The translations under genes and the position numbers were made by a program. Positions 2,463-61,694 of a stretch of DNA of 64,000 nucleotides are shown in pieces. How positions within the stretch are numbered: the first letter of the stretch is position 1; each line of letters begins with the position of its first letter. The DNA is from a virus. Under the pieces are notes generated by a model that did no database searches, was not told the DNA's origin, and saw only the letters and a list, made by a program, of their open reading frames with translations. The stretch is from IMG/VR virus record IMGVR_UViG_3300020048_000003. One strand, written 5' to 3'.

Positions 2463-2466
2463 AATG

Positions 2467-3107: not shown

Positions 3108-3108
3108 A

Positions 3109-4667: not shown

Positions 4668-4748
4668 ATTTTAGATAAACTTCTATTATATTTTAGAATA
4701 TATATTGTATGAAAAAATTAAACTCTTCTTAGTCCATATCATTACGAT

Positions 4749-4996: not shown

Positions 4997-5293
4997 TAAA
5001 TTTGCACTCATTTTAATTGCTAACTCTTTTGAACTTTTGATTTTTTTATATAAATCATTAGGATGAAATCCATCAACACTTATACCAGTTTCATGAAACT
5101 TTTCAGCCAATATATGATGTGTAGAACATAAAGATATACCATTTTCTTTTACATATCCACCATTAATAATTTCGGTTCTATCTGTAATATGATGTGCATC
5201 AACTGCTTGCGCATTACAAAAAACACACTTTCCACCATCTCTAGTAAAAACTGCGTTTCTGAATTTTTCTCTTATTTGTTTCTTTGTTGACAT
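4991..5293 (-). CDS. HNH endonuclease
   Basis: GGKCVFCNAQAVDAHHI...NG...LCSTHH is the HNH/zinc-finger nuclease motif. Confidence 0.8.
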   Translation of the reverse strand: MSTKKQIREKFRNAVFTRDGGKCVFCNAQAVDAHHITDRTEIINGGYVKENGISLCSTHHILAEKFHETGISVDGFHPNDLYKKIKSSKELAIKMSANLK

Positions 5294-39579: not shown

Positions 39580-40079
39580 AATATATTAAAACATTTGAAA
39601 ATAAAGAACTAAATCTTCATTTAATGATGTGTGATTTTTTATCTAAAATAAATGATAAAGAATATTTAGTTACTAGATTTTTTTATTATAGAGGTATGAC
39701 AGAGGGTAATACTTTAGCATTTAAAAGATATGAAAATTATCCCCGTGTTAATACATATCCTATTTTTTCAATTACATTTAAAGATGTAAATGACACAAAA
39801 TTACGAGGTGTTGCAAATAAGCCAAAGATGAAAGTTATTGTAAATTATGAATATGATATGGCTGGTGTTAAGGATGTTCAGTTCGTTACAATGTTGAAAG
39901 ACTTTATTGTTGATGTGTTTACAAAATATTCTTATTTTCATAAAAAGCGTGATAAATATTATAGAAAAGATTTTTGTAGTCATGATTTCTATATTAATAC
40001 ATCTGAAATTTCAAATATTATGAATGATTTTGAGAATGAATTTGATTTTTATGTTAATACAAGAAAATATAACTTATAA
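39576..40079 (+). CDS. Fam-A protein (MKYIKTFE...TRKYNL)
   Basis: Termini. Confidence 0.75.
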   Translation: MKYIKTFENKELNLHLMMCDFLSKINDKEYLVTRFFYYRGMTEGNTLAFKRYENYPRVNTYPIFSITFKDVNDTKLRGVANKPKMKVIVNYEYDMAGVKDVQFVTMLKDFIVDVFTKYSYFHKKRDKYYRKDFCSHDFYINTSEISNIMNDFENEFDFYVNTRKYNL

Positions 40080-40339
40080 TGAAATATATTAAAACATTTG
40101 AATCTGATAAATATACTTTTGGTGAGTATGTTATGTTTTTTAATAAGATGAAACGTTTAGATGAGTTAGATGGACTATTGTGGGACAAACTAGAGTTAGC
40201 AGAAATTCTTGCGTTAGATTCTGATAGAGATGAATATTATATTGAGATAAAAGAAGATGGTGATGAACTTTGGGTAGGTGCTGACCAAATTCGTAAATTG
40301 ACTGATTTTGAAAAAGATACATTAAAATATAATTTATGA
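40079..40339 (+). CDS. Fam-A small protein (MKYIKTFE...TLKYNL)
   Basis: Termini. Confidence 0.75.
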   Translation: MKYIKTFESDKYTFGEYVMFFNKMKRLDELDGLLWDKLELAEILALDSDRDEYYIEIKEDGDELWVGADQIRKLTDFEKDTLKYNL

Positions 40340-40653
40340 AACATATAAAAACATTTGAAAGTAGTTCTGATGATAGAAAAAAAGCCGAAGATGAATTTGT
40401 AGGAAAATTATATAAAATATATCCTACACATAATCCAAGTGAAATGATAGCTATAGCAAAATGTGTAAGTATATTAGGAATGCATAGTAATTGGGGTGAT
40501 TTTGAAGGTTATATTATTCACCCACCAATGTCTAAAGGTAGATTTTATGCAGATTCTGAATTTTTAAATGGAATTGGTAAAGAAAATGAAGTAAGTAAAG
40601 AAGATATTGAAGAATATGAATTATATAATACAATGAATAATTATAACCTATGA
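40336..40653 (+). CDS. Fam-A small protein (MKHIKTFE...MNNYNL)
   Basis: Termini. Confidence 0.75.
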   Translation: MKHIKTFESSSDDRKKAEDEFVGKLYKIYPTHNPSEMIAIAKCVSILGMHSNWGDFEGYIIHPPMSKGRFYADSEFLNGIGKENEVSKEDIEEYELYNTMNNYNL

Positions 40654-41150
40654 TAAAATTATTTGAATCTTATTCGTTAAAAAGTGATATAGAAGAACTT
40701 TCTAGTGCTATACTAGATTTATCTAAAAATGTTTTTAAAGATATTAAACCAAAACCTTTTGGTGTTTGCTCTTGGATAAGTATTCCTGTTTGTCAATTTT
40801 CACTTTATTATAATAGTCAAACAATATTTTATTGTATTATGGAAATATCTAAAGAAATGGATAATGAATTTGCAAGAAATCAATTTAACGGACAGATACC
40901 AGATGAATATTATACACAAGATATTACTATCAAAATAATTAGGCAATATCCTTTTAATACAAAGTTTATTGAACCTTTTTTTAACTATTTAAGATATATA
41001 GTATTATCAGTTAGTGAAGTTACAAATAAGAGGATATCTTCTACTAGTTTTATTAGTTCAATAAAACAGGAGAATGTTAAAGAAATTATATCAAAGTTAA
41101 ATATAGAAGATTATGAACTTTGGTTAGAAGCAAGTAAATACAATTTATAA
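40650..41150 (+). CDS. Fam-A protein (MIKLFESY...ASKYNL)
   Basis: Termini. Confidence 0.7.
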   Translation: MIKLFESYSLKSDIEELSSAILDLSKNVFKDIKPKPFGVCSWISIPVCQFSLYYNSQTIFYCIMEISKEMDNEFARNQFNGQIPDEYYTQDITIKIIRQYPFNTKFIEPFFNYLRYIVLSVSEVTNKRISSTSFISSIKQENVKEIISKLNIEDYELWLEASKYNL

Positions 41151-41318
41151 ATCAATCATCTGATTTTCAACTATCAAATATTGCATTTTTGTACCTTCAA
41201 AGATTATAGAACAATCTTTTTTCTTTGCTTTATCAAGGTTCTGATACATAAAAACTTTAGTAATTTTAAGTTTCTGTAAATCATCCAATTGGCTATATTT
41301 TTTAGTAGTTTTTTCCAT
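41145..41318 (-). CDS. Unlisted 57-aa ORF (MEKTTKKYSQLDDLQK...) with a promoter motif 3 nt upstream
   Basis: Hand translation; its TTA stop abuts the TAA of the convergent Fam-A gene. Confidence 0.35.
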   Translation of the reverse strand: MEKTTKKYSQLDDLQKLKITKVFMYQNLDKAKKKDCSIIFEGTKMQYLIVENQMIDL

Positions 41319-41334
41319 AGCACAAAGATAGACA
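41319..41334 (-). promoter_or_regulatory. Conserved promoter element (GTCTATCTTTGTGC) adjacent to the ATG
   Basis: gcacaaagatagac. Confidence 0.45.
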
Positions 41335-41381
41335 TTTTTTCTGACTTAAAAAATTAATTTTCATTTTTTATATATAATAAT

Positions 41382-42422
41382 ATGAAATATATTAAAGAGT
41401 ATAAAATATTTGAAAGAAAAGGAAATTATCAGTTATTTCATAAAACTAACGAATATGCTCTAAATCTTATTGTTAATAGTGGTTTTATAAAATGTGGTGG
41501 TGATTCAAATGATGATGAAGATGATTACAAATGGTGGAATTATGGATTAAGAAAAAATGTTTTTTCTGATTGGAAGCAAGATGATAAAAAATTCAAAACT
41601 ATCTCAGCGACAAGAAATTTAGATTATCTTTGGTTGCCAGCATTAGAATTAGATGTTGAAAAAATTTCAGATAAATATAGAATTGTACCATTTAGTGAGA
41701 ATCCAGATTATTATTTAGATTTTTATGGTGGTGATGATGGATTTGCTAGTAGTGGTGAAAAATATGGAAAAATGAAATCTAGAAAAAATCCTATATTACC
41801 ATTAAAAAATAAGAAGAAATTAACTAATTTTCAAAATATGATAAGATCAAAATCAAAAGATGCTGGTAAATTATTTTGGAGATTTAAGACAGATAAAGAT
41901 GTTATGGATTATGGTATAGCAGAAGAGTTAATTCTTACTGATAAATTAGATTTCGGAAAATATGTAAAAAGAGTAATTTTGAGAAAAGATTTTGGAAATG
42001 AAAATGAAAAATTAATTAAACTAATTAATAAAAAATATCCTAATGTTGAAGTTGTTGAAATTGATAGAAGAAATAGTGGTGGTTTCAATTATATGGATGT
42101 TAAAAGAGTATCTAAACAGAAAGAAAAAGAAAAAGAATTAGCATTACAAGAAAGCAAAAAACCTATACCAGAATATAAAAAAGGTGATTATGTTCATTTA
42201 GAAGATGATGAAACTTGGACAGTTTATCAAACCGCAAAAGTAATTAGTTTAAATTCAAATGTTGATTTACAAAATAATGATTATTATATAGAAGCATTTT
42301 TGAAACAAAATAATAAACCTGTTGAATTTTGGGTTGATGATTACGATATAGATAGAAAATCTACAAATGAAGAAATTGCAGAGTTAGAAATAATAAAAAA
42401 TGCAATTAAATATAATTTATGA
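41382..42422 (+). CDS. Fam-A large member (346 aa; MKYIKEYK...IKYNL)
   Basis: Termini; C-terminal STNEEIAELEII helix. Confidence 0.7.
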   Translation: MKYIKEYKIFERKGNYQLFHKTNEYALNLIVNSGFIKCGGDSNDDEDDYKWWNYGLRKNVFSDWKQDDKKFKTISATRNLDYLWLPALELDVEKISDKYRIVPFSENPDYYLDFYGGDDGFASSGEKYGKMKSRKNPILPLKNKKKLTNFQNMIRSKSKDAGKLFWRFKTDKDVMDYGIAEELILTDKLDFGKYVKRVILRKDFGNENEKLIKLINKKYPNVEVVEIDRRNSGGFNYMDVKRVSKQKEKEKELALQESKKPIPEYKKGDYVHLEDDETWTVYQTAKVISLNSNVDLQNNDYYIEAFLKQNNKPVEFWVDDYDIDRKSTNEEIAELEIIKNAIKYNL

Positions 42423-42814
42423 AATATATAAAATTATTTGAGAATCAAGATAATATTGATATTTGTAAAATGTTATTGAGTCACTTGACAAATACTTTTG
42501 AAGAAATTGGTTACGATTACAATAATTATCTTGTTTATGGTTTATATGAAACAGAATTTGATAAAAATAAAGAAAATTTATTCAAATTTATATATGATGC
42601 TCATACTAAACAATTTTCAATAAGATTATTTGATATGGCAGATGAAGTATTATTTATACCAGAATATTTTAAAACTATTACAGGATTAAAATTTCAAGAT
42701 ACTAAGTATTTTAATAGATATATTTATGATATTATAGATATTGATAAAGCAATTGAACAAATATCAAAAGAAGATTTTGAATTAAAATTTACATCAAATA
42801 AATACAATATATAA
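42419..42814 (+). CDS. Fam-A protein (MKYIKLFE...SNKYNI)
   Basis: Termini. Confidence 0.75.
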   Translation: MKYIKLFENQDNIDICKMLLSHLTNTFEEIGYDYNNYLVYGLYETEFDKNKENLFKFIYDAHTKQFSIRLFDMADEVLFIPEYFKTITGLKFQDTKYFNRYIYDIIDIDKAIEQISKEDFELKFTSNKYNI

Positions 42815-42845: not shown

Positions 42846-43955
42846 TTATTGTCCTCTACCATATAATACTGTAAAGAAAGTCTTAAAGAATATTTTTATA
42901 TCTTGAGTAATAGACCAATTATTAATGTAATCCATATCTAACTGCATCCAATCATCAAACTTTATATCATTTCTATTTTTTTGAATTTGCCATAAACAAG
43001 TTATACCAGGTTTTGTTAACAATCTTAAAAAATATTTCTTTTTATACTTTTTAATTTCTTCTTCTAACGAAGGTCTTGGACCAATTATGGACATATCACC
43101 TTTTAAAACATTAAGAAATTGTGGAAATTCATCAATGCCAGTTTTTCTTAAAAAAGATCCAATATTTGTTATTCTTGGGTCTTTTTTTATTTTAAAAACC
43201 GGACCATCTGCCTCATTTAATTTCATTAAGTCCTTTTTAATATCCTCGGCATCAGAAACCATAGTTCTAAATTTATATAAAGTAAATTCTTTACCATGTA
43301 GACCTATTCTTTTTTGCTTGAATATAATAGGACCTTTTGATGTTAGTTTTATTAATAATGCAATAACAAAAAGAAAAGGTGCTGACAATAAGAGAATAGA
43401 AAAAGATAAAATCATATCGGTTATTTTCTTTTTTCTCAAATCACACATAGGTAACAATTCAATATCTTTGTGATAATTTATTCTTGATATTAATTTTTTA
43501 GCAGTTCCTTCCCTACCACTAATTAGAAAATTTTCAGTCATTGTACTATTTTCAATGATTTCAGGATTTTTAATTTTTTCTTTTGCACAACTACCATCAC
43601 TTAATACATTTTTTACACTTTCTAGTAATTGTTCTGAATGAACAGGTTTTTCTATATAATCACACGCACCTAATTGCATTGACTTGATTATCAATGGTAC
43701 TTCATCATAACCAGTAAACATAATTACTGGTATAACATAATTGCTTTTAATATATTTTAGAATTTCAATTCCTGACATACCACCTGGTATATCATAATCA
43801 GTTATAATTAAATCTATATTAGAATTTTTTAGTCTTTCAATTCCTATTTCACCGGAAATTGCGGTATATACTTTGTACCCGTTATCTTTTAATGTTTTTT
43901 TCACTAACATTAAAATTATTTCATCATCATCTATAAGTAAAATTGATTTTTTCAT
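42846..43955 (-). CDS. Response-regulator receiver (REC) domain fused to a bacterial sugar transferase (WbaP/WcaJ/PglC-type polyprenyl-phosphate hexose-1-phosphate transferase)
   Basis: ILLIDDDE...DLIITDYDIPGGMSG...MFTGY is a REC domain. C-terminal TM plus RIGLHGKEFTLYKFRTM...GPRP is the sugar-transferase signature. Start set at MKKSILL (43955); the longer ORF-track N-terminus is translated terminator hairpin. Confidence 0.8.
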   Translation of the reverse strand: MKKSILLIDDDEIILMLVKKTLKDNGYKVYTAISGEIGIERLKNSNIDLIITDYDIPGGMSGIEILKYIKSNYVIPVIMFTGYDEVPLIIKSMQLGACDYIEKPVHSEQLLESVKNVLSDGSCAKEKIKNPEIIENSTMTENFLISGREGTAKKLISRINYHKDIELLPMCDLRKKKITDMILSFSILLLSAPFLFVIALLIKLTSKGPIIFKQKRIGLHGKEFTLYKFRTMVSDAEDIKKDLMKLNEADGPVFKIKKDPRITNIGSFLRKTGIDEFPQFLNVLKGDMSIIGPRPSLEEEIKKYKKKYFLRLLTKPGITCLWQIQKNRNDIKFDDWMQLDMDYINNWSITQDIKIFFKTFFTVLYGRGQ

Positions 43956-44020
43956 ACTAGCTATATTAGAATTTGTATTGTTGCAATGATAAGGAATAAT
44001 TTTTAAAATAAAAAATAAAA

Positions 44021-44046
44021 AGAGCCAATTTGGCTCTTTTTTTGCT
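44021..44046. terminator. Bidirectional intrinsic terminator
   Basis: aaaaagagccaatttggctctttttttg. Confidence 0.7.
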
Positions 44047-44072
44047 ATCAGGTTCATTTGAATATCGCATTT

Positions 44073-44695: not shown

Positions 44696-45754
44696 TTAGA
44701 TTAAATGACTTCCACATTTTGGACAAAATTCCCAAGTATTCTTTCTGATTCTATAACCACAATGAGTACAATATTCTCTTACTTCTTTTATTGTACGATT
44801 CATTGTTGAGATTGGCATAATCTTATATGTCATTGAATGAAAAGGTAAATCAGCAAATTGTAAATTTACTCCTTTTAATGTTTGTCTTGAAGTGTCGCCT
44901 TTTTCTATTCTACCAGTTTCTAAAGGATCATAAGTTCTGCTATTTTTATTTATAACATCAAATTCAGAAAATGAAGAATTGATATAATCATTATAATCAA
45001 TAGATTTATCTGTATTTTCACAAAGATATTCAGACCAAGCAATACTTGATTCTAAGTTTGAATTTAGATAATTTGAATATGTATTTGTTGTATTTGTTGT
45101 ATAAGTTGATGATGTTGTTGTACCACCACCTGTTGTATTAATAGTTGTATTAATGTTTGTGAAATGTGGTAAACCAGCACCTCCACCTGAACCAGAGAAT
45201 CCTGCAGGTCCAGCACAACCTTGTATACCTGATACTCCTGAACTACCTGATGTTCCTGATGTTCCAGAGGTACCTGAAGATCCAGAATAACCAGAAGTAC
45301 CTGATCCCCAAGCCATACCTTTATTTTTATAAGGTTTAGGAGGTTTAGGTGGAAAACTATACTTAATGTTTACTTCTTCATTATAAGTACGGTATGAGTG
45401 TCTTTCTTTAAAAAAGTTGAAAGAAATTACTCCGTTTTCTTCTATTGCTTTAACAGCCGCTTCATTATTACCATTAACAACATAAGTTTCAAATAACATT
45501 TTACGTTGTTCATCTAAGAAGCGATCTAATATTATATCTTGCCCTGGATTTAGGACTAGATAACCATCTCCTTTATTTATACCATTGAAATTAATTTGTA
45601 CTCCAATTTTTTCAGGTAAAGGATTAAAAAACCTTAGTTCAAAGTTATCACCATCGTTTAGAAAAACGGTGTTGTCTTGATATAACTTTAACTCATTGCG
45701 ATTGCTTGTAATCACGACCGATGGAGCACGGTCTAGCATTTTGTAGTGTGTCAT
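44696..45754 (-). CDS. Protein with a Gly/Ser/Thr-rich collagen-like low-complexity core and a C-terminal zinc ribbon
   Basis: WGSGTSGYSGSSGTSGTSGTSGSSGVSG...; C-terminal CTHCGYRIRKNTWEFCPKCG. Confidence 0.55.
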   Translation of the reverse strand: MTHYKMLDRAPSVVITSNRNELKLYQDNTVFLNDGDNFELRFFNPLPEKIGVQINFNGINKGDGYLVLNPGQDIILDRFLDEQRKMLFETYVVNGNNEAAVKAIEENGVISFNFFKERHSYRTYNEEVNIKYSFPPKPPKPYKNKGMAWGSGTSGYSGSSGTSGTSGTSGSSGVSGIQGCAGPAGFSGSGGGAGLPHFTNINTTINTTGGGTTTSSTYTTNTTNTYSNYLNSNLESSIAWSEYLCENTDKSIDYNDYINSSFSEFDVINKNSRTYDPLETGRIEKGDTSRQTLKGVNLQFADLPFHSMTYKIMPISTMNRTIKEVREYCTHCGYRIRKNTWEFCPKCGSHLI

Positions 45755-49186: not shown

Positions 49187-49534
49187 TTGATGAAAATAAA
49201 AAAGTTCAATCAAATTAACGAAGCATCTGAGGATGATGTTGATAAACATATAATTATAACGGTTAGTATGAAAGACGAATTCCAATGTACTTTAGCTGAT
49301 ATCAAAGAAACAACAGCTTATTGGAATCATTTAAAATATATACAAGATAAAAATTTTAATGAAACTGATGAAGAGATAGAAAGACAAGCTGTTTATTATG
49401 GATTAGAGGAATATTGTTATAATCAAGGTAAGGGTGGATTTTCTTATAATTTTGTAGATAATGCTGGCAATAAAATTGAAAATTTAGATACATATAGAGA
49501 ATTTATAAAAGATACAAAAAAATATAATATATGA
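49187..49534 (+). CDS. Fam-A protein (..KIKKFNQINE...TKKYNI)
   Basis: C-terminal motif; starts an 11-gene array. Confidence 0.65.
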   Translation: MMKIKKFNQINEASEDDVDKHIIITVSMKDEFQCTLADIKETTAYWNHLKYIQDKNFNETDEEIERQAVYYGLEEYCYNQGKGGFSYNFVDNAGNKIENLDTYREFIKDTKKYNI

Positions 49535-49818
49535 AAATTAGAAAATTTTTTGAGCAATATGAGTTAGATGTTGATGGTGATGGTGGTATAGCAGAAGAAT
49601 ATGTCAAATTAATAATATCAACATATATTGATAAACAACATTTGGAGCATGTTACTTTAGAAAAAGTGTATAGAGATGTTGTAAAAGGTGACGACTTAGA
49701 TGAATCTCAATGTGAAATAATAAGAGATGAATTAAAAATATACATTACATTTCTATTAAGATATGCTAAACAAATTAGAAAAATATTTGAAATAGACGCT
49801 GAGGATTATAACTTATGA
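49531..49818 (+). CDS. Fam-A-like protein (MKIRKFFEQYE...AEDYNL)
   Basis: Termini. Confidence 0.65.
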   Translation: MKIRKFFEQYELDVDGDGGIAEEYVKLIISTYIDKQHLEHVTLEKVYRDVVKGDDLDESQCEIIRDELKIYITFLLRYAKQIRKIFEIDAEDYNL

Positions 49819-50150
49819 AACATTTAAAATTATTTGAAAAAAAAGGAAAATTTGAAGTAGAAATTAAAGAATCACTAAAAAAGTTTTGTGGTGAATTTGG
49901 TTTTTTTGATTATGAATATAACTATTATACTTATACGAAGGTGACAAACATTTCATTTAGAATTACAGGTAAAATAAATCAAGAAAATGAAAAAAAATTT
50001 AATGAGGTACTTAATTTTATTAAAAATTATCATAATTGGGAAATAACACCATATATGAATACATTTCGTGTATTTTTTTGTCCGACAGATCCAGAACAGT
50101 TTTTAAATGATTTAGAAACTATTATATCAGCAAAAATTTATAATTTATGA
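49815..50150 (+). CDS. Fam-A protein (MKHLKLFE...AKIYNL)
   Basis: Termini. Confidence 0.7.
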   Translation: MKHLKLFEKKGKFEVEIKESLKKFCGEFGFFDYEYNYYTYTKVTNISFRITGKINQENEKKFNEVLNFIKNYHNWEITPYMNTFRVFFCPTDPEQFLNDLETIISAKIYNL

Positions 50151-50476
50151 GATATATTAAAACATTTGAGAAAAAATATGTAGAACCTTTTAGAAGAAAT
50201 AGAAAAAAAAATGGTCCGAAACCAAAATTTAATGTTGGTGATGAGGTTATTGTTATGTATGATTTAACACAATTTGGTTACCCATATGGGATCGTAAAAG
50301 GTGATATCGTTACAATAGTTGATTATTGGATAAATGCAAATGATGATATATCATATAAAATAGATAGTCCTAAACTTCGTGAGATAAAAAAAGGTAGAGA
50401 CATAGAATATGATATGTTTGATGAATTTCATTTCGCGTATGAATATGAAGAAGATGCAAATAAATATAATTTATGA
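50147..50476 (+). CDS. Fam-A protein (MRYIKTFE...ANKYNL), VGDEVIVMYD barrel
   Basis: Termini. Confidence 0.75.
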   Translation: MRYIKTFEKKYVEPFRRNRKKNGPKPKFNVGDEVIVMYDLTQFGYPYGIVKGDIVTIVDYWINANDDISYKIDSPKLREIKKGRDIEYDMFDEFHFAYEYEEDANKYNL

Positions 50477-50796
50477 AATATATTAAAACATTTGAAAAAA
50501 GATATAAACAAGAGGAGGATTTTGAAATTCCAGATGGAACTAAATTGTTGTGTGTTAGAAGTGATTACCATATGTTTAAGGTTGGTGATATTGTAGAAAT
50601 GAATTATTATAAAGCATATGGTGGTGTTGGATATTATTCTGGTATATCAAAAAATAATACAACTTATAGTGCTACGGTTATTGATGCAAATACAGTTCTA
50701 TTGGATAAATATCAAAGTACAGATGCGACTTTCACAACAGATGCTACAATAGAAGATTATAAATTAAGAAAAGCAACGGAGAAATATAATTTATGA
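50473..50796 (+). CDS. Fam-A protein (MKYIKTFE...TEKYNL), VGDIVEMNY barrel
   Basis: Termini. Confidence 0.75.
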   Translation: MKYIKTFEKRYKQEEDFEIPDGTKLLCVRSDYHMFKVGDIVEMNYYKAYGGVGYYSGISKNNTTYSATVIDANTVLLDKYQSTDATFTTDATIEDYKLRKATEKYNL

Positions 50797-51233
50797 AATA
50801 TATTAAAATGTATGAAATAAAGAGTTTAGAAAAAAGAACTGACATTTTTGCTGATGCTGTCAAAAATGATAAGAAAGCTTTGATTAATAAGATGATTGAT
50901 AATGATATTAATCAAAATGAAGGAGAATTTATATTAATAGCAGTGATTTATAATGATGAGAAGATTTTGAAAAAATTAATAAAAAAAGGCGTTGACTTAA
51001 ATGCATTAACTCAAGCAGGATATTCGCCATTAATTTTTACTGCTATTCAAGGTTTTCATAGTTGTATGAATACACTTATAGAAGCAGGTGCAGATTGGAA
51101 TATTATAGATGATAGTGGACATGATTTTTTAAGATATTTACCATCTTATTTAAGAAATAAAACAATAGAAAAATATCCAGAGCAATATAAAGAATATTTA
51201 TTTAGAAAAGAATCAGAAAAATATAACTTATGA
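50793..51233 (+). CDS. Fam-A protein with ankyrin repeats (MKYIKMYE...SEKYNL)
   Basis: KKGVDLNALTQAGYSPLIFTAIQGFHSCMNTLIEAGADWNIIDDSGHDFL is an ANK repeat pattern. Confidence 0.75.
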   Translation: MKYIKMYEIKSLEKRTDIFADAVKNDKKALINKMIDNDINQNEGEFILIAVIYNDEKILKKLIKKGVDLNALTQAGYSPLIFTAIQGFHSCMNTLIEAGADWNIIDDSGHDFLRYLPSYLRNKTIEKYPEQYKEYLFRKESEKYNL

Positions 51234-51562
51234 AATATATTAAAACATATGAAACTATAAATATTCCTTCATCACGACCGAGTGATGCGTGGCTTAATGT
51301 ATATACTGATTATAGAGTAGGTGACATTGTAAAAATTTGGAACGAATTTTATGCTGGTGAGATAGTTTATTTGTGCCGTTCATATGGCGGAAGATATACT
51401 AGTCATGATGTTAAAGGTATTATGAATTATGATGGTTCATTAAGAAATGGTGATATAAAGACGATAGATGAAGAATATATGAGAAAATTAGATCCTAATG
51501 AGTTGAAAGGATTTAAAGATTTGTTAAGTATGCACGATGATGTAAAAAAATATAATTTATGA
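51230..51562 (+). CDS. Fam-A protein (MKYIKTYE...VKKYNL), VGDIVKIWN barrel
   Basis: Termini. Confidence 0.75.
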   Translation: MKYIKTYETINIPSSRPSDAWLNVYTDYRVGDIVKIWNEFYAGEIVYLCRSYGGRYTSHDVKGIMNYDGSLRNGDIKTIDEEYMRKLDPNELKGFKDLLSMHDDVKKYNL

Positions 51563-51819
51563 AATATATTAAAATATATGAAATGAAAAAACAAAAACCA
51601 AAATTTTCTGTTGGTGAGAAGGTGGAATGTATTTTCTCTAGATGGGGAAATCTAAAGGAGGGTGAAATATATGAAATTGAAAGAATTACTTGGTCTAGAA
51701 GAAAAGGTAAATTTGTGTGTAAATTAAAAGGTGTTGGTGCAGATGATGAGTATTCTTATTTTTCAGAGAATAATTTTATTAGTGAACTTGAACATGATAT
51801 GAAAAATTATAACTTATGA
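51559..51819 (+). CDS. Fam-A protein (MKYIKIYE...MKNYNL)
   Basis: Termini. Confidence 0.75.
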   Translation: MKYIKIYEMKKQKPKFSVGEKVECIFSRWGNLKEGEIYEIERITWSRRKGKFVCKLKGVGADDEYSYFSENNFISELEHDMKNYNL

Positions 51820-52250
51820 AATATATTAAAACATTTGATAATACTAGTCAGAAATTAGAAGATATTAAAAAACTTCAATTGTCTAAACTTGCTATTTTTA
51901 AATTTTCAAAAAAAATAAACGAATTATTTCAAAAACATTATAATGTATCAACAATATTAAGAGAAGAAGATTCAAATCACCACCAAATAAAAAATAGATA
52001 TGATATATCTGATAGTGTTTTAAAAAGAAAAACATATTTTTCAATTTCAATTACACCTAATTATAAAATAGATATTTTTCCTCTTAGTGTAAGCAACGAT
52101 TTAGAAAAATTTTTTATAGAATTTTTTGATTTGGATTCACAAAATTATAGTATAAGAATATTCTGCACTTCAGAAGAATTGAATGATTATTGCGATATAA
52201 TTGTTGATGAATTTGATTTGTATGTTGCCACAAAAAAATATAACTTATGA
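51816..52250 (+). CDS. Fam-A protein (MKYIKTFD...TKKYNL)
   Basis: Termini. Confidence 0.75.
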   Translation: MKYIKTFDNTSQKLEDIKKLQLSKLAIFKFSKKINELFQKHYNVSTILREEDSNHHQIKNRYDISDSVLKRKTYFSISITPNYKIDIFPLSVSNDLEKFFIEFFDLDSQNYSIRIFCTSEELNDYCDIIVDEFDLYVATKKYNL

Positions 52251-52687
52251 AATATTTACATTTATTTGAAAATCAAAATGAATCATACCCTTATGAATGG
52301 GAAAATATTGTTCAAAAAGGTAACAAATTATATATTTATGTCTATGAATTAGCAAACGAAATGGAAAGTGATGTTGCTGGAAAAGGTAAAGAAGAATTAG
52401 TTAAAATGGAACATACTTATTATAAGTTAATTAGAAATTTATTAATTGGTAAAGTTATAACCTTTGACTGTGAAGAATGTTCAATTGAACATACTGGTAT
52501 TTGTGATACCGTAGGTTTTTCTTCTGGACGTTATGAAGAAGGATCCGATGATACATTTCAAGTTCAGTTTGTACATATATCAACAGAAGATATAGATGAC
52601 CAGCATAATATTGAAGATGAAGAAATAATTGTTCACTTAGACATTGATCCTGAAACTTATAGAACAGCAAATAAATACAATTTATAA
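52247..52687 (+). CDS. Fam-A protein (MKYLHLFE...ANKYNL)
   Basis: Termini. Confidence 0.75.
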   Translation: MKYLHLFENQNESYPYEWENIVQKGNKLYIYVYELANEMESDVAGKGKEELVKMEHTYYKLIRNLLIGKVITFDCEECSIEHTGICDTVGFSSGRYEEGSDDTFQVQFVHISTEDIDDQHNIEDEEIIVHLDIDPETYRTANKYNL

Positions 52688-52695
52688 TATAATTT

Positions 52696-53010
52696 ATGAA
52701 ATATATACTGGAAATGAAACATATGAAATCTGCAATTTATTATAGTGATGGATCCGCTTATTATGAGGACTATAATGACATGGATGAATTTGATTTAGAG
52801 ATAGTTAAAAATTATAAATTTAGAATAGGTGATTGTGTTAGAATAAACGACACTATTGTTGTATATAAAATATTAGCAGTTTCTCCTGACTCAAAGTATC
52901 AATATAAAATTGGAAGATACGATCAAGGATTTGGTACAAATAGAATAGAAGAAAAAGATTTAGTTCCAATATCAGACTTTGAAAGAAATATAATGAAGTA
53001 TAATTTGTAA
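52696..53010 (+). CDS. Fam-A protein (MKYILEMKHMK...IMKYNL), IGDCVRIND barrel
   Basis: Termini. Confidence 0.7.
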   Translation: MKYILEMKHMKSAIYYSDGSAYYEDYNDMDEFDLEIVKNYKFRIGDCVRINDTIVVYKILAVSPDSKYQYKIGRYDQGFGTNRIEEKDLVPISDFERNIMKYNL

Positions 53011-53296: not shown

Positions 53297-53608
53297 TTAT
53301 AAATTATATTTATCTGCAATATCTTCCATTTCAATTTTGAATCTTGTTGATTCCCAGCCCTTTGAAATTTCACCCGTTTCAATATTTTCAACATCAACTC
53401 TTAAAAAATCATTTTTAAGAAAAATATCTTCTCCTAATCTGTATATTTTTATGACTTTAAATTTATCTCCGATTTCTAATACATGCTTCACACTACCTTT
53501 TATAGTTGACATATATCCAGTATCTCTTACACAGACTACAGTATCACCAACACCATAATCAATAAGTTGACCTGTTGTATATAATTCAAATAATTTTAAA
53601 TATTTCAT
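53297..53608 (-). CDS. Fam-A protein on the minus strand (MKYLKLFE...ADKYNL), VGDTVVCVRD barrel
   Basis: Termini; first gene of a 6-gene inverted array. Confidence 0.75.
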   Translation of the reverse strand: MKYLKLFELYTTGQLIDYGVGDTVVCVRDTGYMSTIKGSVKHVLEIGDKFKVIKIYRLGEDIFLKNDFLRVDVENIETGEISKGWESTRFKIEMEDIADKYNL

Positions 53609-53611
53609 ATT

Positions 53612-53971
53612 TTATAAGTTATATTTTTGTCCTTCTATTGCAATATCTATTTCATCTTTGTTGGCAAACCTTATATAAGCATCAAACCCATTTGGTGTTT
53701 TACCACATTGAAGAATCCAATAATTATCTAGTACCCAACCAATTTTATTTAATTTTAAAAAACTCTTTTTAAGTTTAATAATTCCTTTTAATACTTCATC
53801 AAAAGTTCCTCTTGTGTTATGTGTCTCATTTTTTATACCATTTACTGTATATGTATATCTACTTAAATAATCTCTTTCACCTGGTGCGAATAAATCATCA
53901 GAATCATATTCTTGAATTTGAAGTCCGTGTTTAATCCATTCAACTTCTTCAAATAATTTTAAATATTTCAT
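53612..53971 (-). CDS. Fam-A protein (MKYLKLFE...GQKYNL)
   Basis: Termini. Confidence 0.75.
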   Translation of the reverse strand: MKYLKLFEEVEWIKHGLQIQEYDSDDLFAPGERDYLSRYTYTVNGIKNETHNTRGTFDEVLKGIIKLKKSFLKLNKIGWVLDNYWILQCGKTPNGFDAYIRFANKDEIDIAIEGQKYNL

Positions 53972-54321
53972 AAGTTATATTTATTTGTTTCTTCAAGAAA
54001 TTTGAATTTTTCAATTTCTTCTTCTGTTGCTGGTCTTAATATTTTTACATCTGACTTTACCTTTATAATTTCTCTCATACCATCTAAATCAAATATTTGC
54101 TCTATAAAACTTATCTTTGTATGTCCTTTTGCTTCTAATAATAATATTTTATAATAAAAACCATCAGCACCGTAATATTTACCAGTTGTAAATTTTTCTA
54201 ATTTCATTATACAATCAAGCATATCATTCTTATATCTCCAATATGTATTGTTTATAAAATCAGATAAAGATATTTCATCTGGCGTTTCTAAAACTATTTC
54301 AAATGTTTTAATATACTTCAT
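53968..54321 (-). CDS. Fam-A protein (MKYIKTFE...TNKYNL)
   Basis: Termini. Confidence 0.75.
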   Translation of the reverse strand: MKYIKTFEIVLETPDEISLSDFINNTYWRYKNDMLDCIMKLEKFTTGKYYGADGFYYKILLLEAKGHTKISFIEQIFDLDGMREIIKVKSDVKILRPATEEEIEKFKFLEETNKYNL

Positions 54322-54659
54322 AAGTTATATCTTTTTGCATCTTGTTTAAATTTGAATTCTTCAATTCTATCTTTAAATTTTTCAATTTCAGCAGGATAAG
54401 CATGTCTTATCCAACTATTTATTTTCCATGGGTCTGCATCATCAACAACAAAACTATATTGCCAACCTTTTAAATATGTCAAAGTATATTTTTTATTATA
54501 TTTTGTATGTTGCTTAATGCTAGTTATTTGTGCTGGTTCATATAGGACTAAATTTTTTAAATGTGTACCAACATTCACATCATCTAAATAAACCCAATCC
54601 CCAACATTGAATTGAGTTGAATTTTCAAAATTTTCAAATATTTTAAAATTAGTTATCAT
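54318..54659 (-). CDS. Fam-A protein (MITNFKIFE...AKRYNL), VGDWVYLDD barrel
   Basis: Termini. Confidence 0.7.
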   Translation of the reverse strand: MITNFKIFENFENSTQFNVGDWVYLDDVNVGTHLKNLVLYEPAQITSIKQHTKYNKKYTLTYLKGWQYSFVVDDADPWKINSWIRHAYPAEIEKFKDRIEEFKFKQDAKRYNL

Positions 54660-54976
54660 AAATTGTATTTATTTGCATGTGTAAATACCTCTATATCTTC
54701 TTTTTCTGATGAATATTTTAATATTTCATCACTATTAAACCAAGTTGGATTTGCAAAAGTATAGCTTCTATCAACACAATCCTCATCAAATTCTACTAAT
54801 ATTCTAAATTGTAATGGGATTTTATTAGTTATTTTAATATCAAGTACTTTTCCTATACTAACACTTAGATAACTATTATATAAAGGATCAAAATAATCCT
54901 CAGCATCAATCAATACATAATCACCAATCTCTAATTGTTTATCTACTTCCGCTTCAAATAATTTAATATATTTCAT
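54656..54976 (-). CDS. Fam-A protein (MKYIKLFE...ANKYNL), IGDYVLID barrel
   Basis: Termini. Confidence 0.75.
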   Translation of the reverse strand: MKYIKLFEAEVDKQLEIGDYVLIDAEDYFDPLYNSYLSVSIGKVLDIKITNKIPLQFRILVEFDEDCVDRSYTFANPTWFNSDEILKYSSEKEDIEVFTHANKYNL

Positions 54977-55437
54977 ATATTATATTTTTTTGCATCTTTT
55001 TTGATTTGAAAATTTTCAATATCTGATTTAATTTCTTCTTTTACTTTTTTTACTTTTTTAATAAATTTTTTTGTCTTGAAATCATAATTCTCATTCTCAT
55101 TAAATTCTATATTTTCAACCTGTTCAACAAATTTAGTAAAATCATCTGTTACAAATATAATATTACATTCGTGAACAAATAGAGTCAAAGGTTCTAAATC
55201 AGGTTCGTGTTCATTATTATGTGCTAATTCCTTTAATTCTTTTTCATTTAGATCTGATAATAGTTTTATCAAAAATACTTTTCTATCATCATAAATGTAA
55301 TCTGTATAATTTTGAACTACAATACCATACAAATGAAACCAAAAAACATTATCTTTACCGGTATTATCGCCTAAGATAACATATTGACCTTCTTTTATAT
55401 TGTATAGTTCAAATTCAAATAATTTTAAATATTTCAT
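54973..55437 (-). CDS. Fam-A protein (MKYLKLFE...AKKYNI)
   Basis: Termini. Confidence 0.75.
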   Translation of the reverse strand: MKYLKLFEFELYNIKEGQYVILGDNTGKDNVFWFHLYGIVVQNYTDYIYDDRKVFLIKLLSDLNEKELKELAHNNEHEPDLEPLTLFVHECNIIFVTDDFTKFVEQVENIEFNENENYDFKTKKFIKKVKKVKEEIKSDIENFQIKKDAKKYNI

Positions 55438-55482: not shown

Positions 55483-56379
55483 ATGATAATAAGATTTAAT
55501 AAGTATGAATTAGTTGAAGAAAAATTAAACATAAATTTCGGCAATTTAATAAATTGTGTGCTTATTTATTTTGCATTTTTTAATGGATTGGATGATACAA
55601 AGCAGATTAAAATATCGGAGGTTATTAAATATACCAAAAATTTTGATATTAAAAACAATGATAAAATAGTTAAAGACGCTCTTAACGATATGAAAGATAA
55701 AGTGTTAAGTGATGATAAAATTCTTAATAAGAAAGAAGTTGTTGCGTATTTGGATTCTATTGCAATAGTTAGAAAAAAAGATGATAAAATCTCAAAAGCT
55801 ATGTATGGACTTTCTACCTCAAATGGTACAAAAGCATCATCTTTTGCAATATCATTAGATAAAAGTGATTTTGGATATAATTGTGATATGATTTTCTTAG
55901 ATGATGATGCAGATTATAATGAAATTATACATGAATTAACTCATGTTATAAAAAATCACATGAAATTAAATACAAGTTTAGATTTTGAAAAATTATTTAA
56001 TTTTAATAAATCAGTTAGACAGCAAAAAAAAGATATAAAGGTTTTAACAGGTGGACTTTTTGAGTATTCAATAGATACAAAGAAAGAATCTGAATTTATA
56101 GAATATATACAGACACCATCAGAATTATATTCAAGACTAACAAGTTTCAAAATGTTTTTATATAAAAGAGGATATTTGAAAACTCCAAATGAAGACTTCT
56201 CACCACAGTTAATTAGAAGAATAACTAATGGTAGTTTGTATGCAGGTATGTCAGCAAGAGATAGACATTTATTTATAAATTCTGATTTCCTTGATATTTT
56301 ATTGTTTATTGACAGAACAAAAATTCATATGTTGGATCAATTTGTTCAAAATATTTCTAAAAATAATGATTTAGCATGA
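55483..56379 (+). CDS. Hypothetical protein with an HExxH motif (possible Zn-metallopeptidase)
   Basis: IIHELTHVI; no other diagnostic motifs seen. Confidence 0.4.
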   Translation: MIIRFNKYELVEEKLNINFGNLINCVLIYFAFFNGLDDTKQIKISEVIKYTKNFDIKNNDKIVKDALNDMKDKVLSDDKILNKKEVVAYLDSIAIVRKKDDKISKAMYGLSTSNGTKASSFAISLDKSDFGYNCDMIFLDDDADYNEIIHELTHVIKNHMKLNTSLDFEKLFNFNKSVRQQKKDIKVLTGGLFEYSIDTKKESEFIEYIQTPSELYSRLTSFKMFLYKRGYLKTPNEDFSPQLIRRITNGSLYAGMSARDRHLFINSDFLDILLFIDRTKIHMLDQFVQNISKNNDLA

Positions 56380-56843
56380 AGTACTTAAAATTATTTGAAG
56401 ACTATTCAAAAGAAGAAATACGAAATTTTCTGATAAAAGCACAACAAAATTCTCAAATTGATATTAAAACTAATATTGATAATTTAATGGACAATTTATC
56501 AAAAATAAAAAGACCAGAACTTGGAACTTTTGAATATTTCGTAAATAGCGAAGCTAGATTTATATCTGAAGGTGATTATAAACGAATGGGAGAATATATA
56601 GAAGGTTTTAAAAAATTAGGTATAGATGTATCAAAAGTTGAAAAACTCTATCCAAAATTGCTTAGATATAAGACAATTCAATTAAAAGAACTTGATAATT
56701 ACGAACATGGATATTCTCAAAAAGAGAAAGAAAAGAATTTAGATAGATTATATGATGAATTGAATGATTTAGAACCATATAAAGTTCAATTTGACGATGA
56801 AGTAAAAATATTAACAAAAAAAGCAAAACAACTTGATAACTAA
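56376..56843 (+). CDS. Fam-A N-terminal type protein (MKYLKLFEDY...) lacking the KYNL end
   Basis: Ends ..KQLDN* within a degenerate junction. Confidence 0.6.
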   Translation: MKYLKLFEDYSKEEIRNFLIKAQQNSQIDIKTNIDNLMDNLSKIKRPELGTFEYFVNSEARFISEGDYKRMGEYIEGFKKLGIDVSKVEKLYPKLLRYKTIQLKELDNYEHGYSQKEKEKNLDRLYDELNDLEPYKVQFDDEVKILTKKAKQLDN

Positions 56844-57309
56844 ATTATTTGAATTTGTGAGTGGATATATCATATCTTATGAAGATATTAAGAAAAAATT
56901 ATCTAATTATAAGAGTATTACATTTACAGAAGATAAAATTGAATTTATTTTTGATGAACTTTCTAAAGAAACAAATGGTGAATGCTATTATCAATGGAAT
57001 TTAGATAAAATGGTGAACCTCTTTGAGAATTATATAATTAGTTTTTATAAATATAATAGTGATACTGAATATTGGAAAACAGAACCAAAGAAAGAGGATT
57101 TTATCATAACTGATCAAATTATGACAATGACATATAAAAAACTTTTTAGAAAATCTCCCATAAAGTTAGGAACAGGAACTGTTAATATTGAATATTATGA
57201 TAAAAATAGTTATAAAGCATTTAATGTTATAATAGATAAGACTAAACCATTTACAGTTTATATTGACGAAACTACTTTTATAAGAGATGCTGATAAATAT
57301 AATTTATAA
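56833..57309 (+). CDS. Fam-A C-terminal type protein (..ITKLFEF...ADKYNL) with no ATG (TTG start or frameshifted junction)
   Basis: The junction is 'ttgataactaaattatttgaa' instead of 'ttatgaaatatataaaattatttgaa'. The ORF starts at a TTG and overlaps the upstream gene by 11 nt in the +1 frame. Confidence 0.5.
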   Translation: MITKLFEFVSGYIISYEDIKKKLSNYKSITFTEDKIEFIFDELSKETNGECYYQWNLDKMVNLFENYIISFYKYNSDTEYWKTEPKKEDFIITDQIMTMTYKKLFRKSPIKLGTGTVNIEYYDKNSYKAFNVIIDKTKPFTVYIDETTFIRDADKYNL

Positions 57310-57403
57310 TGCCGGATATTGCCGGATATTGCCGGATAAAATCATATTGTTTTGATAATCAAACACTTAATTTTTAGAAAATTGCCGTTAATTGCCGGTT
57401 TCA
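57309..57403. repeat. GC-island tandem repeats: (A)TTGCCGGATA x3, then ATTGCCGTTAATTGCCGGTTTC
   Basis: Five copies of a TTGCCGK core within about 95 bp, in an otherwise AT-rich convergent intergenic region. Confidence 0.7.
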
Positions 57404-57618
57404 TTTTCATCATGTTTTTGCTCAGTAATTTTATGAACGAGTGTCAATATACCCTCAATAGCATGTTCTCTTCTTGATTGACTTAGAGTTTCTTCCATTT
57501 CTAATACTCTATTTATGAGAAACGCAATTTGAACAATGTTTCCTGTTTCAATTAAACTTGAACCAACAAAAATTTCAAGTAGGTTTGTTATTTCTTCCAT
57601 TCTATTACTGACTTTCAT
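57388..57618 (-). CDS. Hypothetical small protein
   Basis: 76-aa ORF; its 3' end overlaps the TTGCCGG repeats. Confidence 0.45.
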   Translation of the reverse strand: MKVSNRMEEITNLLEIFVGSSLIETGNIVQIAFLINRVLEMEETLSQSRREHAIEGILTLVHKITEQKHDENETGN

Positions 57619-57935: not shown

Positions 57936-58115
57936 TTACAAAAATAAGGAATAGTTTTAAATAAAAAAACTATTCCTCATTTTCTTTTTTTAGTTGTTCT
58001 AACTTCTTTTTACGTAAGTATTGCTCTATGATTTTTAAATCTACTGTTTCAAGTATAGCATAAGGATCATATTCTTCCTCGACACCAACACCATCATCCC
58101 AAAAGAAACTATCTT

Positions 58116-58805: not shown

Positions 58806-58824
58806 AATTAATTTAAAAGAAAAA

Positions 58825-58851
58825 AGCCGCAATTTTACTTGCGGCTTTTTT
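58825..58851. terminator. Bidirectional intrinsic terminator
   Basis: aaaaaagccgcaattttacttgcggctttttt. Confidence 0.7.
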
Positions 58852-60219: not shown

Positions 60220-61095
60220 TTATCTACAATTAAATACATCTTGTCTTGGAACACCACCAAATAATAATATTAAAGCATTACCAAAACTTTCTTTATAAGG
60301 AGTACCATTATCTCTGGCTCTTATGTTTAATGTATACCTATCATTAGTTTTCATCCAAGTATTTATTGCTGATACATTATTGATTGTAATATCTCCTGAT
60401 GTACCATTAATTTTAAATGCTGTTGAATAGTTACCAGACATTATATAATAATTCAAGGTTTGAATTGTTGTATTTTTATTATCAGGATCTGTTGCAATCA
60501 TTTTACCTATAAGTTTACCATTAGTCATATTAAGTATTCTAATGGTTCTCATAGTATCTGCTAAAATCACAGTATTACCGTTTACTTTTGTTGAATATCT
60601 CAACCTAACGACTAACATGTATCTCCAGCCATAAGCATCAATAGCTGTTTGATTGTTGATAAAGATTGCACCGACATTAGGATCAATGGTGAATGCTGTT
60701 GATGGATTACCAGACATTATATAAAAGTTGATAGATTGTCCATTTGGTACAGGATTGACCCTTATTTCATTAACTAATTTTGCATATTGTGGTGTAATAT
60801 TAAATGTAACCATTGAATCTCTTATGATTACATTATTTTTAGAATATCTCAATCTTATACTTAATGAATAATTCCAGCCATGTGAATTAATAGCATTCTG
60901 ATTGTTAATGAATAGTTCACCAGTTTTAGCATCTAATTTAAATGCTGTTGATGGATTACCAGACATTATATTAAAATTTAATGATTGTCCAGTAGGAATA
61001 GGATTAATTTTTACTTGCCCCATATATTTACCATTCTGAGAAAATACAGATGTGGTAAATAAAAGGGCAAATAAAAATAATACAAATTTATTCAT
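60220..61095 (-). CDS. Secreted protein with three about 95-aa cadherin-like repeats
   Basis: Signal peptide; internal repeat NPIPTGQSLNFNIMSGNPSTAF..D...G.(I/L)FINNQ.AI...GW.Y.L..RLRYS occurs three times; C-terminal ...NIRARDNGTP is a cadherin-type ARDxGxP motif. Confidence 0.55.
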   Translation of the reverse strand: MNKFVLFLFALLFTTSVFSQNGKYMGQVKINPIPTGQSLNFNIMSGNPSTAFKLDAKTGELFINNQNAINSHGWNYSLSIRLRYSKNNVIIRDSMVTFNITPQYAKLVNEIRVNPVPNGQSINFYIMSGNPSTAFTIDPNVGAIFINNQTAIDAYGWRYMLVVRLRYSTKVNGNTVILADTMRTIRILNMTNGKLIGKMIATDPDNKNTTIQTLNYYIMSGNYSTAFKINGTSGDITINNVSAINTWMKTNDRYTLNIRARDNGTPYKESFGNALILLFGGVPRQDVFNCR

Positions 61096-61097: not shown

Positions 61098-61694
61098 TTA
61101 AAATTTTACTTCTGGTGCTTTTTGTGCAGATTCATCAGCTTCAAAGTATGGAAGTTTGTCAAAACCTAACATACTTGCAAATAATACAACAGGGAACTTT
61201 CGCCTTGCATTATTATATTGATTTGCGGCTTCATTAAAATTCCTTCGTTCCACATTAATTCGGTTTTCTGTTCCTTCTAACTGTGCTTGTAATTGTAAGA
61301 AATTTTCATTTGCTTTTAAATTTGGATATTGTTCTACCGAAACTAACAATCTACTAAGAGTTGAACTCATTTCACTCTGAGCCTTTTGAAATTTAGCCAT
61401 TGCGTTAGCATCTAATTTTGAAGGATCTACATTAAGGGTTGTTTTTGTTGCGTTTGCCCTCTGTTCAATAACTCCAATAAGTGTTTTCTGTTCGTGGTCA
61501 GCATATCCCTTTACCACATTCACAAGGTTTGGAATAAGGTCCGCCCTTCGTTGATATGCTCCCTGAACATCTGCCCATTTGTTGTTTGCATTTTCTTGGA
61601 ATTTAACTAGTCCATTATATGAACCAATCACCCCCATAATTGCTAATCCAATTGCTCCTAATACTACAATTAATACAATCCATCCTGTTTTCAT
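61098..61694 (-). CDS. lemA: LemA family protein
   Basis: N-terminal TM then YNGLVKFQENANNKWADVQGAYQRRADLIPNLVNVVKGYADHE is the LemA signature. Confidence 0.8.
   Translation of the reverse strand: MKTGWIVLIVVLGAIGLAIMGVIGSYNGLVKFQENANNKWADVQGAYQRRADLIPNLVNVVKGYADHEQKTLIGVIEQRANATKTTLNVDPSKLDANAMAKFQKAQSEMSSTLSRLLVSVEQYPNLKANENFLQLQAQLEGTENRINVERRNFNEAANQYNNARRKFPVVLFASMLGFDKLPYFEADESAQKAPEVKF

Follow-up and report, generated by a model that had tools for sequence, protein, structure and literature searches.

The 64,000-nucleotide stretch of viral DNA analyzed here (IMG/VR record IMGVR_UViG_3300020048_000003; "the window" below means this whole 64-kb stretch) carries a 95-bp array of 10-bp direct repeats, built on the hexamer TGCCGG and lying between two convergent operons. 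This 95-bp stretch is a functional, selectively maintained cis-element. Its 20-bp signal—two hexamers in tandem, hereafter the doublet—is probably a protein-binding site and recurs in other phage-like contigs and in bacterial defense loci. As to function, we tentatively favor an accessory protein-binding array, bound in tandem at one hexamer per helical turn and serving as an operator or transcription roadblock, an account that we place somewhat short of probable.

Array structure and conservation

The array consists of two clusters of repeat units about an AT-rich core (Table 1). Each unit joins a conserved hexamer to a variable, A/T-rich 4-bp linker, giving a 10-bp repeat of about one helical turn; units are grouped in twos or threes, and clusters stand in pairs or arrays at characteristic distances. 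Directly after a taa stop codon (57307–57309), which touches the first hexamer, the letters run TGCCGGATAT TGCCGGATAT TGCCGGATAA, with hexamer starts at 57310, 57320, and 57330, exactly 10 bp apart. Past these lie 42 AT-rich nucleotides and then ATTGCCGTTA ATTGCCGGTT, whose hexamers read TGCCGT at 57383 and TGCCGG at 57393; the last hexamer of cluster 1 precedes the first of cluster 2 by 53 bp. The core holds a 19-mer, ATATTGTTTTGATAATCAA (57344–57362), a palindrome, TTTGAT-A-ATCAAA (57351–57363), and a stretch, AATCAAacacTTA (57357–57369), that in a comparison by eye may resemble the IHF consensus WATCAANNNNTTR.

The original prediction reported five TTGCCGK cores within 95 bp, placed right after the plus-strand stop at 57309 and over the 3' end of the convergent minus-strand gene. 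The placement is confirmed and the array is real, with four of the five cores matching TTGCCGK exactly; the repeat units are as first described except for the first, which reads ATGCCGGATA because its A is the final base of the stop codon. The cores are also nonrandom. TTGCCGK occurs eight times in the window against 1.73 expected (four of the eight in the array), a count reached in 0 of 100 shuffles, and TGCCGG occurs five times in the 64 kb, four of them in the array. A weight matrix trained on 76 doublets from other loci scored 42.1 and 37.7 bits at 57306–57345 (cluster 1), compared with 6.2 bits for the next-best site in the window and a maximum of 11.9 over 50 shuffles; cluster 2 (57379) scored 11.4, marginal by itself. 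The decamer is not scattered across the window, and the array is the sole site of its kind there. What had been likened to an iteron or operator array is thus a genuine, nonrandom array of the protein-binding type. The array region is base-for-base identical in contigs of two further samples, which rules out an assembly artifact.

Conservation can be read against one relative, the contig L149 (L labels denote loci or contigs of the comparison set). The 76-aa protein encoded beside the array has a single homolog among 5.8 billion proteins, at 86% identity in L149, and that contig carries the element as well: cluster 1 with two units in place of three, identical to those of the window bar one base, a 42-nt core, and an identical ATTGCCGTTAATTGCCGG (18/18). 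Across the array, 37 of 38 unit bases agree, whereas the adjoining 76-aa gene has a synonymous divergence (pS) of 0.345. The core 19-mer is identical at all 19 positions, against about 10 differences in the rest of the core. Binomial estimates relative to the neutral rate give P ~ 2e-6 for the units and ~3e-4 for the central 19-mer; judged by this comparison, the units and the central block are under purifying selection. The IHF-like match is kept in L149, with differences, as read by eye, at N positions of the consensus. The 76-aa open reading frame (ORF) has a nonsynonymous divergence (pN) of 0.088 and a pN/pS of ~0.25 between the two contigs, and is therefore a real gene.

Cluster 1 marks the exact point from which the window and L149 are homologous. 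L149 lacks the 158-aa gene that ends at the array in the window, so that the element there directly follows the preceding gene, and it has an extra 89-aa gene beyond the 76-aa gene. Among relatives of the neighboring 106-aa and 155-aa genes, a synteny comparison found the element in L149 only. In closer relatives of the 106-aa gene (~70–80% nucleotide identity) homology stops at that gene and no CCGG is present; more distant relatives of the 106-aa and 155-aa genes lack the motif as well, and none of these contigs has the 76-aa gene or a TGCCGG repeat. In a whole-genome scan, the complete 462-kb related phage LR756500.1 proved to lack the doublet, even in a form with a single mismatch. The element and the 76-aa gene are present together or absent together. 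Absence from these relatives and from LR756500.1 makes the element accessory, not core.

The junction itself is unusual in its spacing. A plus-strand operon of three genes (55483–57309) meets a minus-strand operon that spans at least from 64000 down to 57388, and the 78 bp between 57309 and 57388 are by far the largest gap of this kind in the window; at all other convergent junctions the genes abut, overlap, or lie at most ~50 bp apart. The array thus sits at the only convergent junction with a real intergenic gap, and the gap seems to exist to hold the element. The proteins neighboring the array matched no family.

Recurrence in phages and bacterial defense loci

Exact 16-mer and 19-mer queries of public collections returned, besides many GC-rich matches arising by chance or in coding sequence, a coherent set of AT-rich loci in which the exact doublet TGCCGGATATTGCCGGATA recurs. 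The consensus is (T/C)TGCCGG-N4-TGCCGG-ATA(A/G): Both hexamers are fixed, and the 4-bp linker varies while staying A/T-rich (ATAT, ACTT, ATTT, GTAC, ATGT, and others). Doublets are nearly always accompanied and almost never single. Megablast of the region against GenBank phages (50,697 records) gave no match, a 30-nt doublet query against the same records gave partial chance matches only, and the relaxed pattern TGCCGGANNNTGCCGGA against viral contigs gave mostly coding chance matches among the matches listed. Searching the full text of the literature for the decamer yielded nothing but primer matches. With no description found in the literature or in Rfam, the doublet family is apparently undescribed.

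The phage-like loci share the paired-cluster layout in varied genetic settings. In a 391-kb phage contig (L027/L068) two clusters separate the stop of nrdA from the start of nrdB; in L047/L065 the clusters stand beside a transfer RNA (tRNA) array with a transfer-messenger RNA (tmRNA) gene; L045/L088 has two clusters, and L042 a single unit plus a doublet. L004 and L030 belong to a single 88-kb contig and have a sigma-factor gene on one side and a helicase gene on the other. The last-to-first hexamer distance between clusters is 53 bp in the window and L149, 54 bp in L027, 55 bp in L047 and L112, and 53 bp by hand count in L042; three other loci have 64–67 bp. In the comparison set as a whole, inverted arrangements of units occur in L046, L048, L053, L112, and L004, and longer tandem runs of the same or similar decamers are found in L066 (five units), L072 (four), and L041 and L122 (three each).

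Several loci of the set have features of their own. The phage-like contig L047 (and L065) packs at least 14 tRNA genes and the tmRNA gene into 8 kb; in L047 one doublet ends 4 nt before a tRNA 5' end, and a gene nearby reads as homing-endonuclease-like. L072 (1330–1400) is a 1.5-kb metagenome contig with four exact TGCCGGATAT units flanked by degenerate ones. Its LemA fragment is 49% identical to the LemA of the window (61098–61694), and the contig may be a further relative with a longer array. Variants of the decamer array are found in other metagenome and genome contigs. In L048 (~5040–5200, motif strand) three copies of TGCTGGATAT stand beside two of TGCCGGATAT, with inverted copies ~45 nt later; in L053 and L046 inverted clusters face one another; and L105, from Acidobacteriota, has a graded run, AATAATGCAG...ATGTTGCGGA...ATATTGCCGG. 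Such variant decamer arrays suggest that the doublet family may be broader, with lineage-specific hexamers.

In bacteria, the exact 19-mer was found at 35 loci among 185,579 species genomes, about one per genome. Hosts of doublets are mostly Bacteroidota and Chlorobiaceae (Chlorobi), with one Lentisphaerota. The arrays usually hold up to four doublets, separated by gaps of 74–78, 36–38, and 63–67 bp, and these lengths are kept even where the spacers fail to align. A 465-aa gene coding for SLFN_AlbA_2 and HATPase_c_4 domains, itself preceded by a DUF4062 gene, has the start of the array at its extreme 3' end; the array ends 14–25 nt ahead of the start of an hsdM or superfamily 1 (SF1) helicase gene within type I restriction–modification islands. 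Among the doublet-bearing loci, 28 have an SLFN_AlbA_2-type gene, 20 its DUF4062 partner, and 7 hsdM. The SLFN/HATPase part matches Argonaute-associated defense models in PADLOC. Pfam assigned no domain to the C-terminal ~100 residues of the protein; from sequence, a winged helix-turn-helix is possible there. No protein family is common to all doublet loci, although SLFN_AlbA_2, DUF4062, and hsdM recur in the bacterial ones, and none is common to bacterial and phage loci except for the LemA homolog of L072.

The position of the first bacterial doublet inside a reading frame separates constraint on DNA from constraint on protein. It is translated as the C terminus ...KKLPDIAG, followed by the stop. 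The C-terminal variants LPDFAG, LPGNAG, LPDNAG, and LPDVAG alter the linker, and hence an amino acid, while in four of six variant lineages both hexamers are intact, synonymous third positions included. The constraint therefore acts on the DNA, not the protein. In L122, a Nanohalarchaeota contig, a related gene carries the motif at its 3' end, oppositely oriented and in a different frame.

The SLFN_AlbA_2/HATPase_c_4 genes and their remnants also carry other, 12-bp tandem repeats beside the 10-bp doublets (Table 1). One example is AATGTCGGAGCA-ATTGTCGGAGCA-ATTGACGGAG, read as NVGAIVGAIDG; further cases are a fourfold CMIN run and, on the opposite strand, runs of PPFA/PPFV. Variability driven by repeats may characterize this defense gene family.

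Table 1. Coordinates of the array, its flanking genes, and the 12-bp repeats of bacterial loci
Feature	Coordinates	Strand	Description
Cluster 1	57309–57338	+	Three tandem 10-bp units: ATGCCGGATA, TTGCCGGATA, TTGCCGGATA
AT-rich core between clusters	57339–57381	no strand	Contains the 19-mer, the palindrome, and the IHF-like stretch
Cluster 2	57382–57401	+	Two units: TTGCCGTTAA, TTGCCGGTTT
158-aa gene	56833–57309	+	Member of the MKYIKLFE...KYNL small-protein family; last of the three-gene operon
76-aa gene	57388–57618	−	Stop (57388–57390) and last codons (..ETGN-stop) within cluster 2
12-bp repeat loci	L058: 3620–3660; L132: ~1500–1580; L085: ~4630–4880		

Possible roles of the array

Under the reading we favor, a sequence-specific protein would line up along the hexamers in head-to-tail order on a single helical face, in the manner of winged-helix proteins at tandem half-sites. 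Bridging across the conserved, AT-rich, and possibly bendable core would join the two clusters, which lie five turns apart, into one nucleoprotein complex. That complex would work as an operator or as a transcriptional roadblock (insulator), keeping the plus operon (55483–57309) and the minus operon (at least 64000 to 57388) from reading into each other; a close variant would have it control an unrecognized promoter in the core. A roadblock would fit every context in which the element was seen: between codirectional genes, ahead of defense genes, and between the convergent operons of the window. In bacteria, the SLFN_AlbA_2/HATPase_c_4 protein would be the most obvious candidate binder of the doublets.

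A number of observations weigh against this account. No binding protein was identified, and no DNA-binding Pfam domain is on record within ±10 kb. The structure model of the 76-aa protein predicts a three-helix bundle (predicted local distance difference test, pLDDT, 75), and a fold search with it gave no match at E ≤ 0.001. Profile searches found neither the SLFN protein nor its C-terminal 110 residues in the window, and the SLFN_AlbA_2/HATPase_c_4 family was not found in viral contigs. A scan of 57310–57400 for sigma-70-type promoters, whose consensus may not be that of this phage or its host, found none, and neither scan nor inspection by eye found a convincing promoter in the core. An operator would not usually be placed between two 3' ends. 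Intercluster gaps of 36–38 and 90 bp at other loci are out of helical phase; those of 53–55, 64–67, and 74–78 bp suggest helical phasing, and we do not take them as proof of it. In several loci the last doublet, 4–30 nt before a start codon or tRNA, must be transcribed. Finally, the estimate of selection draws on one relative, L149.

One alternative, which we consider unlikely, treats the repeats as a recombination or module junction: a hotspot at which accessory genes are swapped, through short homology or site-specifically, or the footprint of a tiny mobile element comprising the repeats and the 76-aa gene. The comparison with L149 is its best ground, since homology begins at cluster 1, the 158-aa gene differs, unit number changes from three to two, and the element is gained or lost together with the 76-aa gene. 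The element is sporadic among phages and sits in variable regions such as nrdA–nrdB in L027; genes that read as HNH endonuclease-like lie nearby in L046, L047, and L045/L088; and bacterial arrays are kept while the genes downstream of them differ. However, no second copy of the motif marks the other border of the 158-aa or the 76-aa gene, and the record shows no recombinase in the vicinity. Because doublets are conserved islands in diverged spacers, alignments would be expected to end at them in any case, and the conserved spacing and central block look more like parts of a working complex than like a scar.

A more far-reaching proposal, for which we see only a small chance, is that the doublet is a regulatory "password" common to huge phages and a defense module of Bacteroidota-type hosts. 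The SLFN_AlbA_2/HATPase_c_4 protein, with its DUF4062 partner, would bind the four-doublet array beside its own gene, and the phage copies would be decoys that titrate or misdirect this defense regulator. It could also run the other way: The host array would be bait, and its occupation by a phage-encoded binder would switch the defense genes on. If true, this would be a new form of cross-talk between phage and defense island at the level of the cis-element.

An RNA-level role is likewise unlikely. In this view, UUGCCGGAUA repeats in the transcript would be the target of a protein or RNA through which the neighboring genes are controlled in translation, processing, or stability. The motif is co-oriented with flanking genes in nearly all loci, and its last doublet often directly precedes a start (nrdB in L027; hsdM in L064, L132, L085, and L103; helicase in L129) or, in L047, a tRNA 5' end 4 nt downstream; Schlafen-type domains, moreover, are RNA-directed nucleases in other systems. 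Against this, no stable or conserved secondary structure emerged: Folding of both strands gave z = 0.62 and −0.57 relative to shuffles, and neither Rfam nor the ARAGORN/tRNA search matched the site. The inverted units of L046, L048, L053, L112, and L004, and the L122 motif on the strand opposite its gene, fit double-stranded recognition better, and the window encodes nothing downstream on its plus strand.

Nor does the gap hold an intrinsic terminator, by scan or by folding energies, which were no better than those of shuffles. Terminator-like sites, each a hairpin with a T-run, occur inside the minus operon at 58820–58851 and 57947–57977 (AAAAAAGCCGCAAGTAAAATTGCGGCTTTTTT and a 12-bp AT-rich stem); the phage thus uses classical hairpins elsewhere, not at the 57.3-kb junction.

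That the array is a replication origin or terminus, a partition centromere, or a packaging site is, taken jointly, very unlikely, and we conclude that it is not an origin or terminus. The layout invites the idea: Direct-repeat clusters flank an AT-rich core with an IHF-like site, much as in parC of plasmid R1 or tubC of pBtoxis, and short tandem repeats in two clusters at a single site in 64 kb resemble a partition centromere. The original prediction had added that the array lies at a strand switch between two large gene blocks, as would suit an origin or terminus. That positional argument fails, because the plus block is only the three genes of 55483–57309 in a window with 19 strand switches, and because GC skew follows the coding strand: Its sign flips at every switch (at 53.0, 55.45, and 57.35 kb alike), and the cumulative curve has no global extremum at the array. 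Within ±10 kb the record shows no Rep, Par, or terminase gene and no replication domain of Pfam, and rep, par, tubZ, and terminase families are absent from the 25 listed of the 54 Pfam families of the window; ParM/ParR, TubZ/TubR, and ParA/ParB are likewise missing from both. The units (three plus two) measure 10 bp rather than the 17–22 bp of iterons, and the element is absent from relatives and from the complete 462-kb related genome. The identical motif also lies inside chromosomal type I restriction–modification and defense loci, about once per genome, where an origin, packaging, or partition role is implausible. For annotation of this phage, a false origin/terminus candidate is removed.

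Chance duplication of a short GC-rich tandem by slippage, without function, is the least credible reading: Unit number does differ between relatives (three versus two), with longer runs in L072, L066, and L041/L122 and variant arrays in L048 and L105, but the same 19-mer, pairing, and 53–55-bp spacing occur in independent phage lineages, the 19-mer also occurs in bacterial arrays, the units are far more conserved than synonymous sites, and cluster 2 is no tandem copy of cluster 1.

Other identities were set aside on direct reading. A DnaA box has TTATCC in common with the array and differs in its last three bases; the GG/GC spacing is wrong for a sigma-54 promoter; a Bacteroidota −33/−7 promoter would need a fixed TAnnTTTG, which is missing; and for a CRISPR-like array the repeats are too short, with no cas genes.

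If the protein-binding reading holds, TGCCGG-N4-TGCCGG-ATAR (20 bp) defines an unrecognized family of regulatory arrays and links huge phages of Bacteroidota-type hosts to a widespread, uncharacterized DUF4062 plus SLFN_AlbA_2/HATPase_c_4 module. It would also offer a handle on the regulation of defense islands and on whether phages copy host operators or the reverse.

Phage setting and comparison with known systems

The window has a GC content of 26% and ~130 mostly small genes in operon-like runs with ATGA overlaps; a tRNA search of it found none. It lies on a 209-kb ENA contig, and a second contig, of 286.6 kb, encodes the same proteins; some 145–220 kb of the phage genome fall outside the window. 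Its recognizable domains are accessory in kind: vault-shoulder-like, collagen, cadherin, ankyrin, LemA, and TPM domains, together with sugar-nucleotide enzymes, DNA methylases, and an RNA ligase. Genes at 42846–44057, 44696–45754, and 60220–61095 (all minus strand) are accessory and unusual in a phage. Among such unusual genes, one fuses a response-regulator receiver to a bacterial sugar transferase, one encodes a collagen-repeat protein that has a zinc ribbon at its C terminus, and one, beside LemA and TPM genes, encodes a protein with a cadherin domain. An 809-aa protein (30777–33206, minus strand) combines a major-vault-protein shoulder with repeat domains and has a weak SPFH/Band 7 (PF01145) match, under the Pfam cut-off; further homologs lie in L139 and L141. 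This vault-like protein is 51–52% identical to proteins of the uncultured phages LR756500 (462 kb) and LR756501 (735 kb). All genomes larger than 634 kb in a study reporting a 735-kb phage genome, which we take to be LR756501, had Bacteroidetes as the predicted hosts of their replication (PMC7162821), and we infer a Bacteroidetes-type host for the window phage too.

The window also holds a very large family of paralogous small proteins whose N- and C-terminal peptides are fixed. It comprises 47 ORFs of at least 60 aa that end in [KRN]YN[LIV] (27 in KYNL, 8 in KYNI), most of them starting MKY[IL]K[LT][FY]E and arranged head to tail with ATGA overlaps, as at 183–3447 (+), 34807–37350 (+), 39115–42814 (+), 49190–53010 (+), and 53297–55437 (−). 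Synonymous variation (AAT/AAC, TAT/TAC, TTA/CTA/ATT) places this conservation at the protein level. Pfam and PHROGs scans of window proteins, several family members included, gave no attributable family, and no ORF of the 462-kb LR756500.1 ends in [KR]YN[LIV].

Several known systems share parts of the array design. The closest in layout are the centromere-operators of actin- and tubulin-type partition systems (parC/ParR of R1, pSK41 parC, pBtoxis tubC), in which direct repeats of 10–12 bp, about one per turn, form two clusters around a ~40-bp core; one small protein binds cooperatively, and the site doubles as operator. The window array likewise has short direct repeats in two clusters about a ~40-bp core. 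It differs in having only three plus two units and no promoter that could be read in the core, in the absence of parM/parR and tubZ/tubR from the ±10-kb record and the listed Pfam families, and in the presence of its motif in chromosomal defense loci.

Pho boxes and OmpR-family sites offer a likeness at the level of the unit. They consist of a 6–7-bp half-site and a 4-bp A/T-rich linker, set head to tail at 10–11 bp, are often present as several boxes per region, and are bound by winged-helix response regulators. The window array is likewise built of half-site and A/T-rich linker, but no DNA-binding response regulator is linked to it, the receiver domain of the window being fused to a sugar transferase, and no −10 element stands at a fixed distance from the doublet. 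Activator sites of lambda CII and P22 C1 have the form TTGC-N6-TTGC and in lambda drive antisense promoters; in lambda pRE the −10 hexamer follows the second TTGC by 13 nt. In the window, TTGCCGGATATTGC is a literal TTGC-N6-TTGC, and a plus-strand promoter at the site would be antisense to the minus genes. The −10 position, however, reads ATTGTT, no CII-like protein was found, and what is conserved in the unit is TGCCGG rather than TTGC.

The array recalls iterons in its direct repeats, in the AT-rich DNA and IHF-like site beside them, and in being the single such site in 64 kb; the differences lie in unit length (10 bp versus 17–22 bp), the lack of an initiator gene and of a skew signal, and the accessory nature of an element whose motif also occurs in chromosomal loci. 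Repetitive extragenic palindromic (REP) sequences are imperfect palindromes that occur in inverted pairs, hundreds per genome, and in the related bacterial interspersed mosaic elements (BIMEs) and repetitive IHF-binding palindromic elements (RIPs); in the latter an IHF site lies between REPs. The GCCGGAT/ATCCGGC core of the window resembles the stem base of Escherichia coli REPs, whereas units of the window type are direct repeats, with about one array per genome. On the defining features tested—partner genes, unit length, −10 element, copy number, and palindromy—the array departs from these systems, and we therefore file it under none of them. It is an array of the direct-repeat protein-binding kind, common to huge phages and to a defense module of their probable host phylum.

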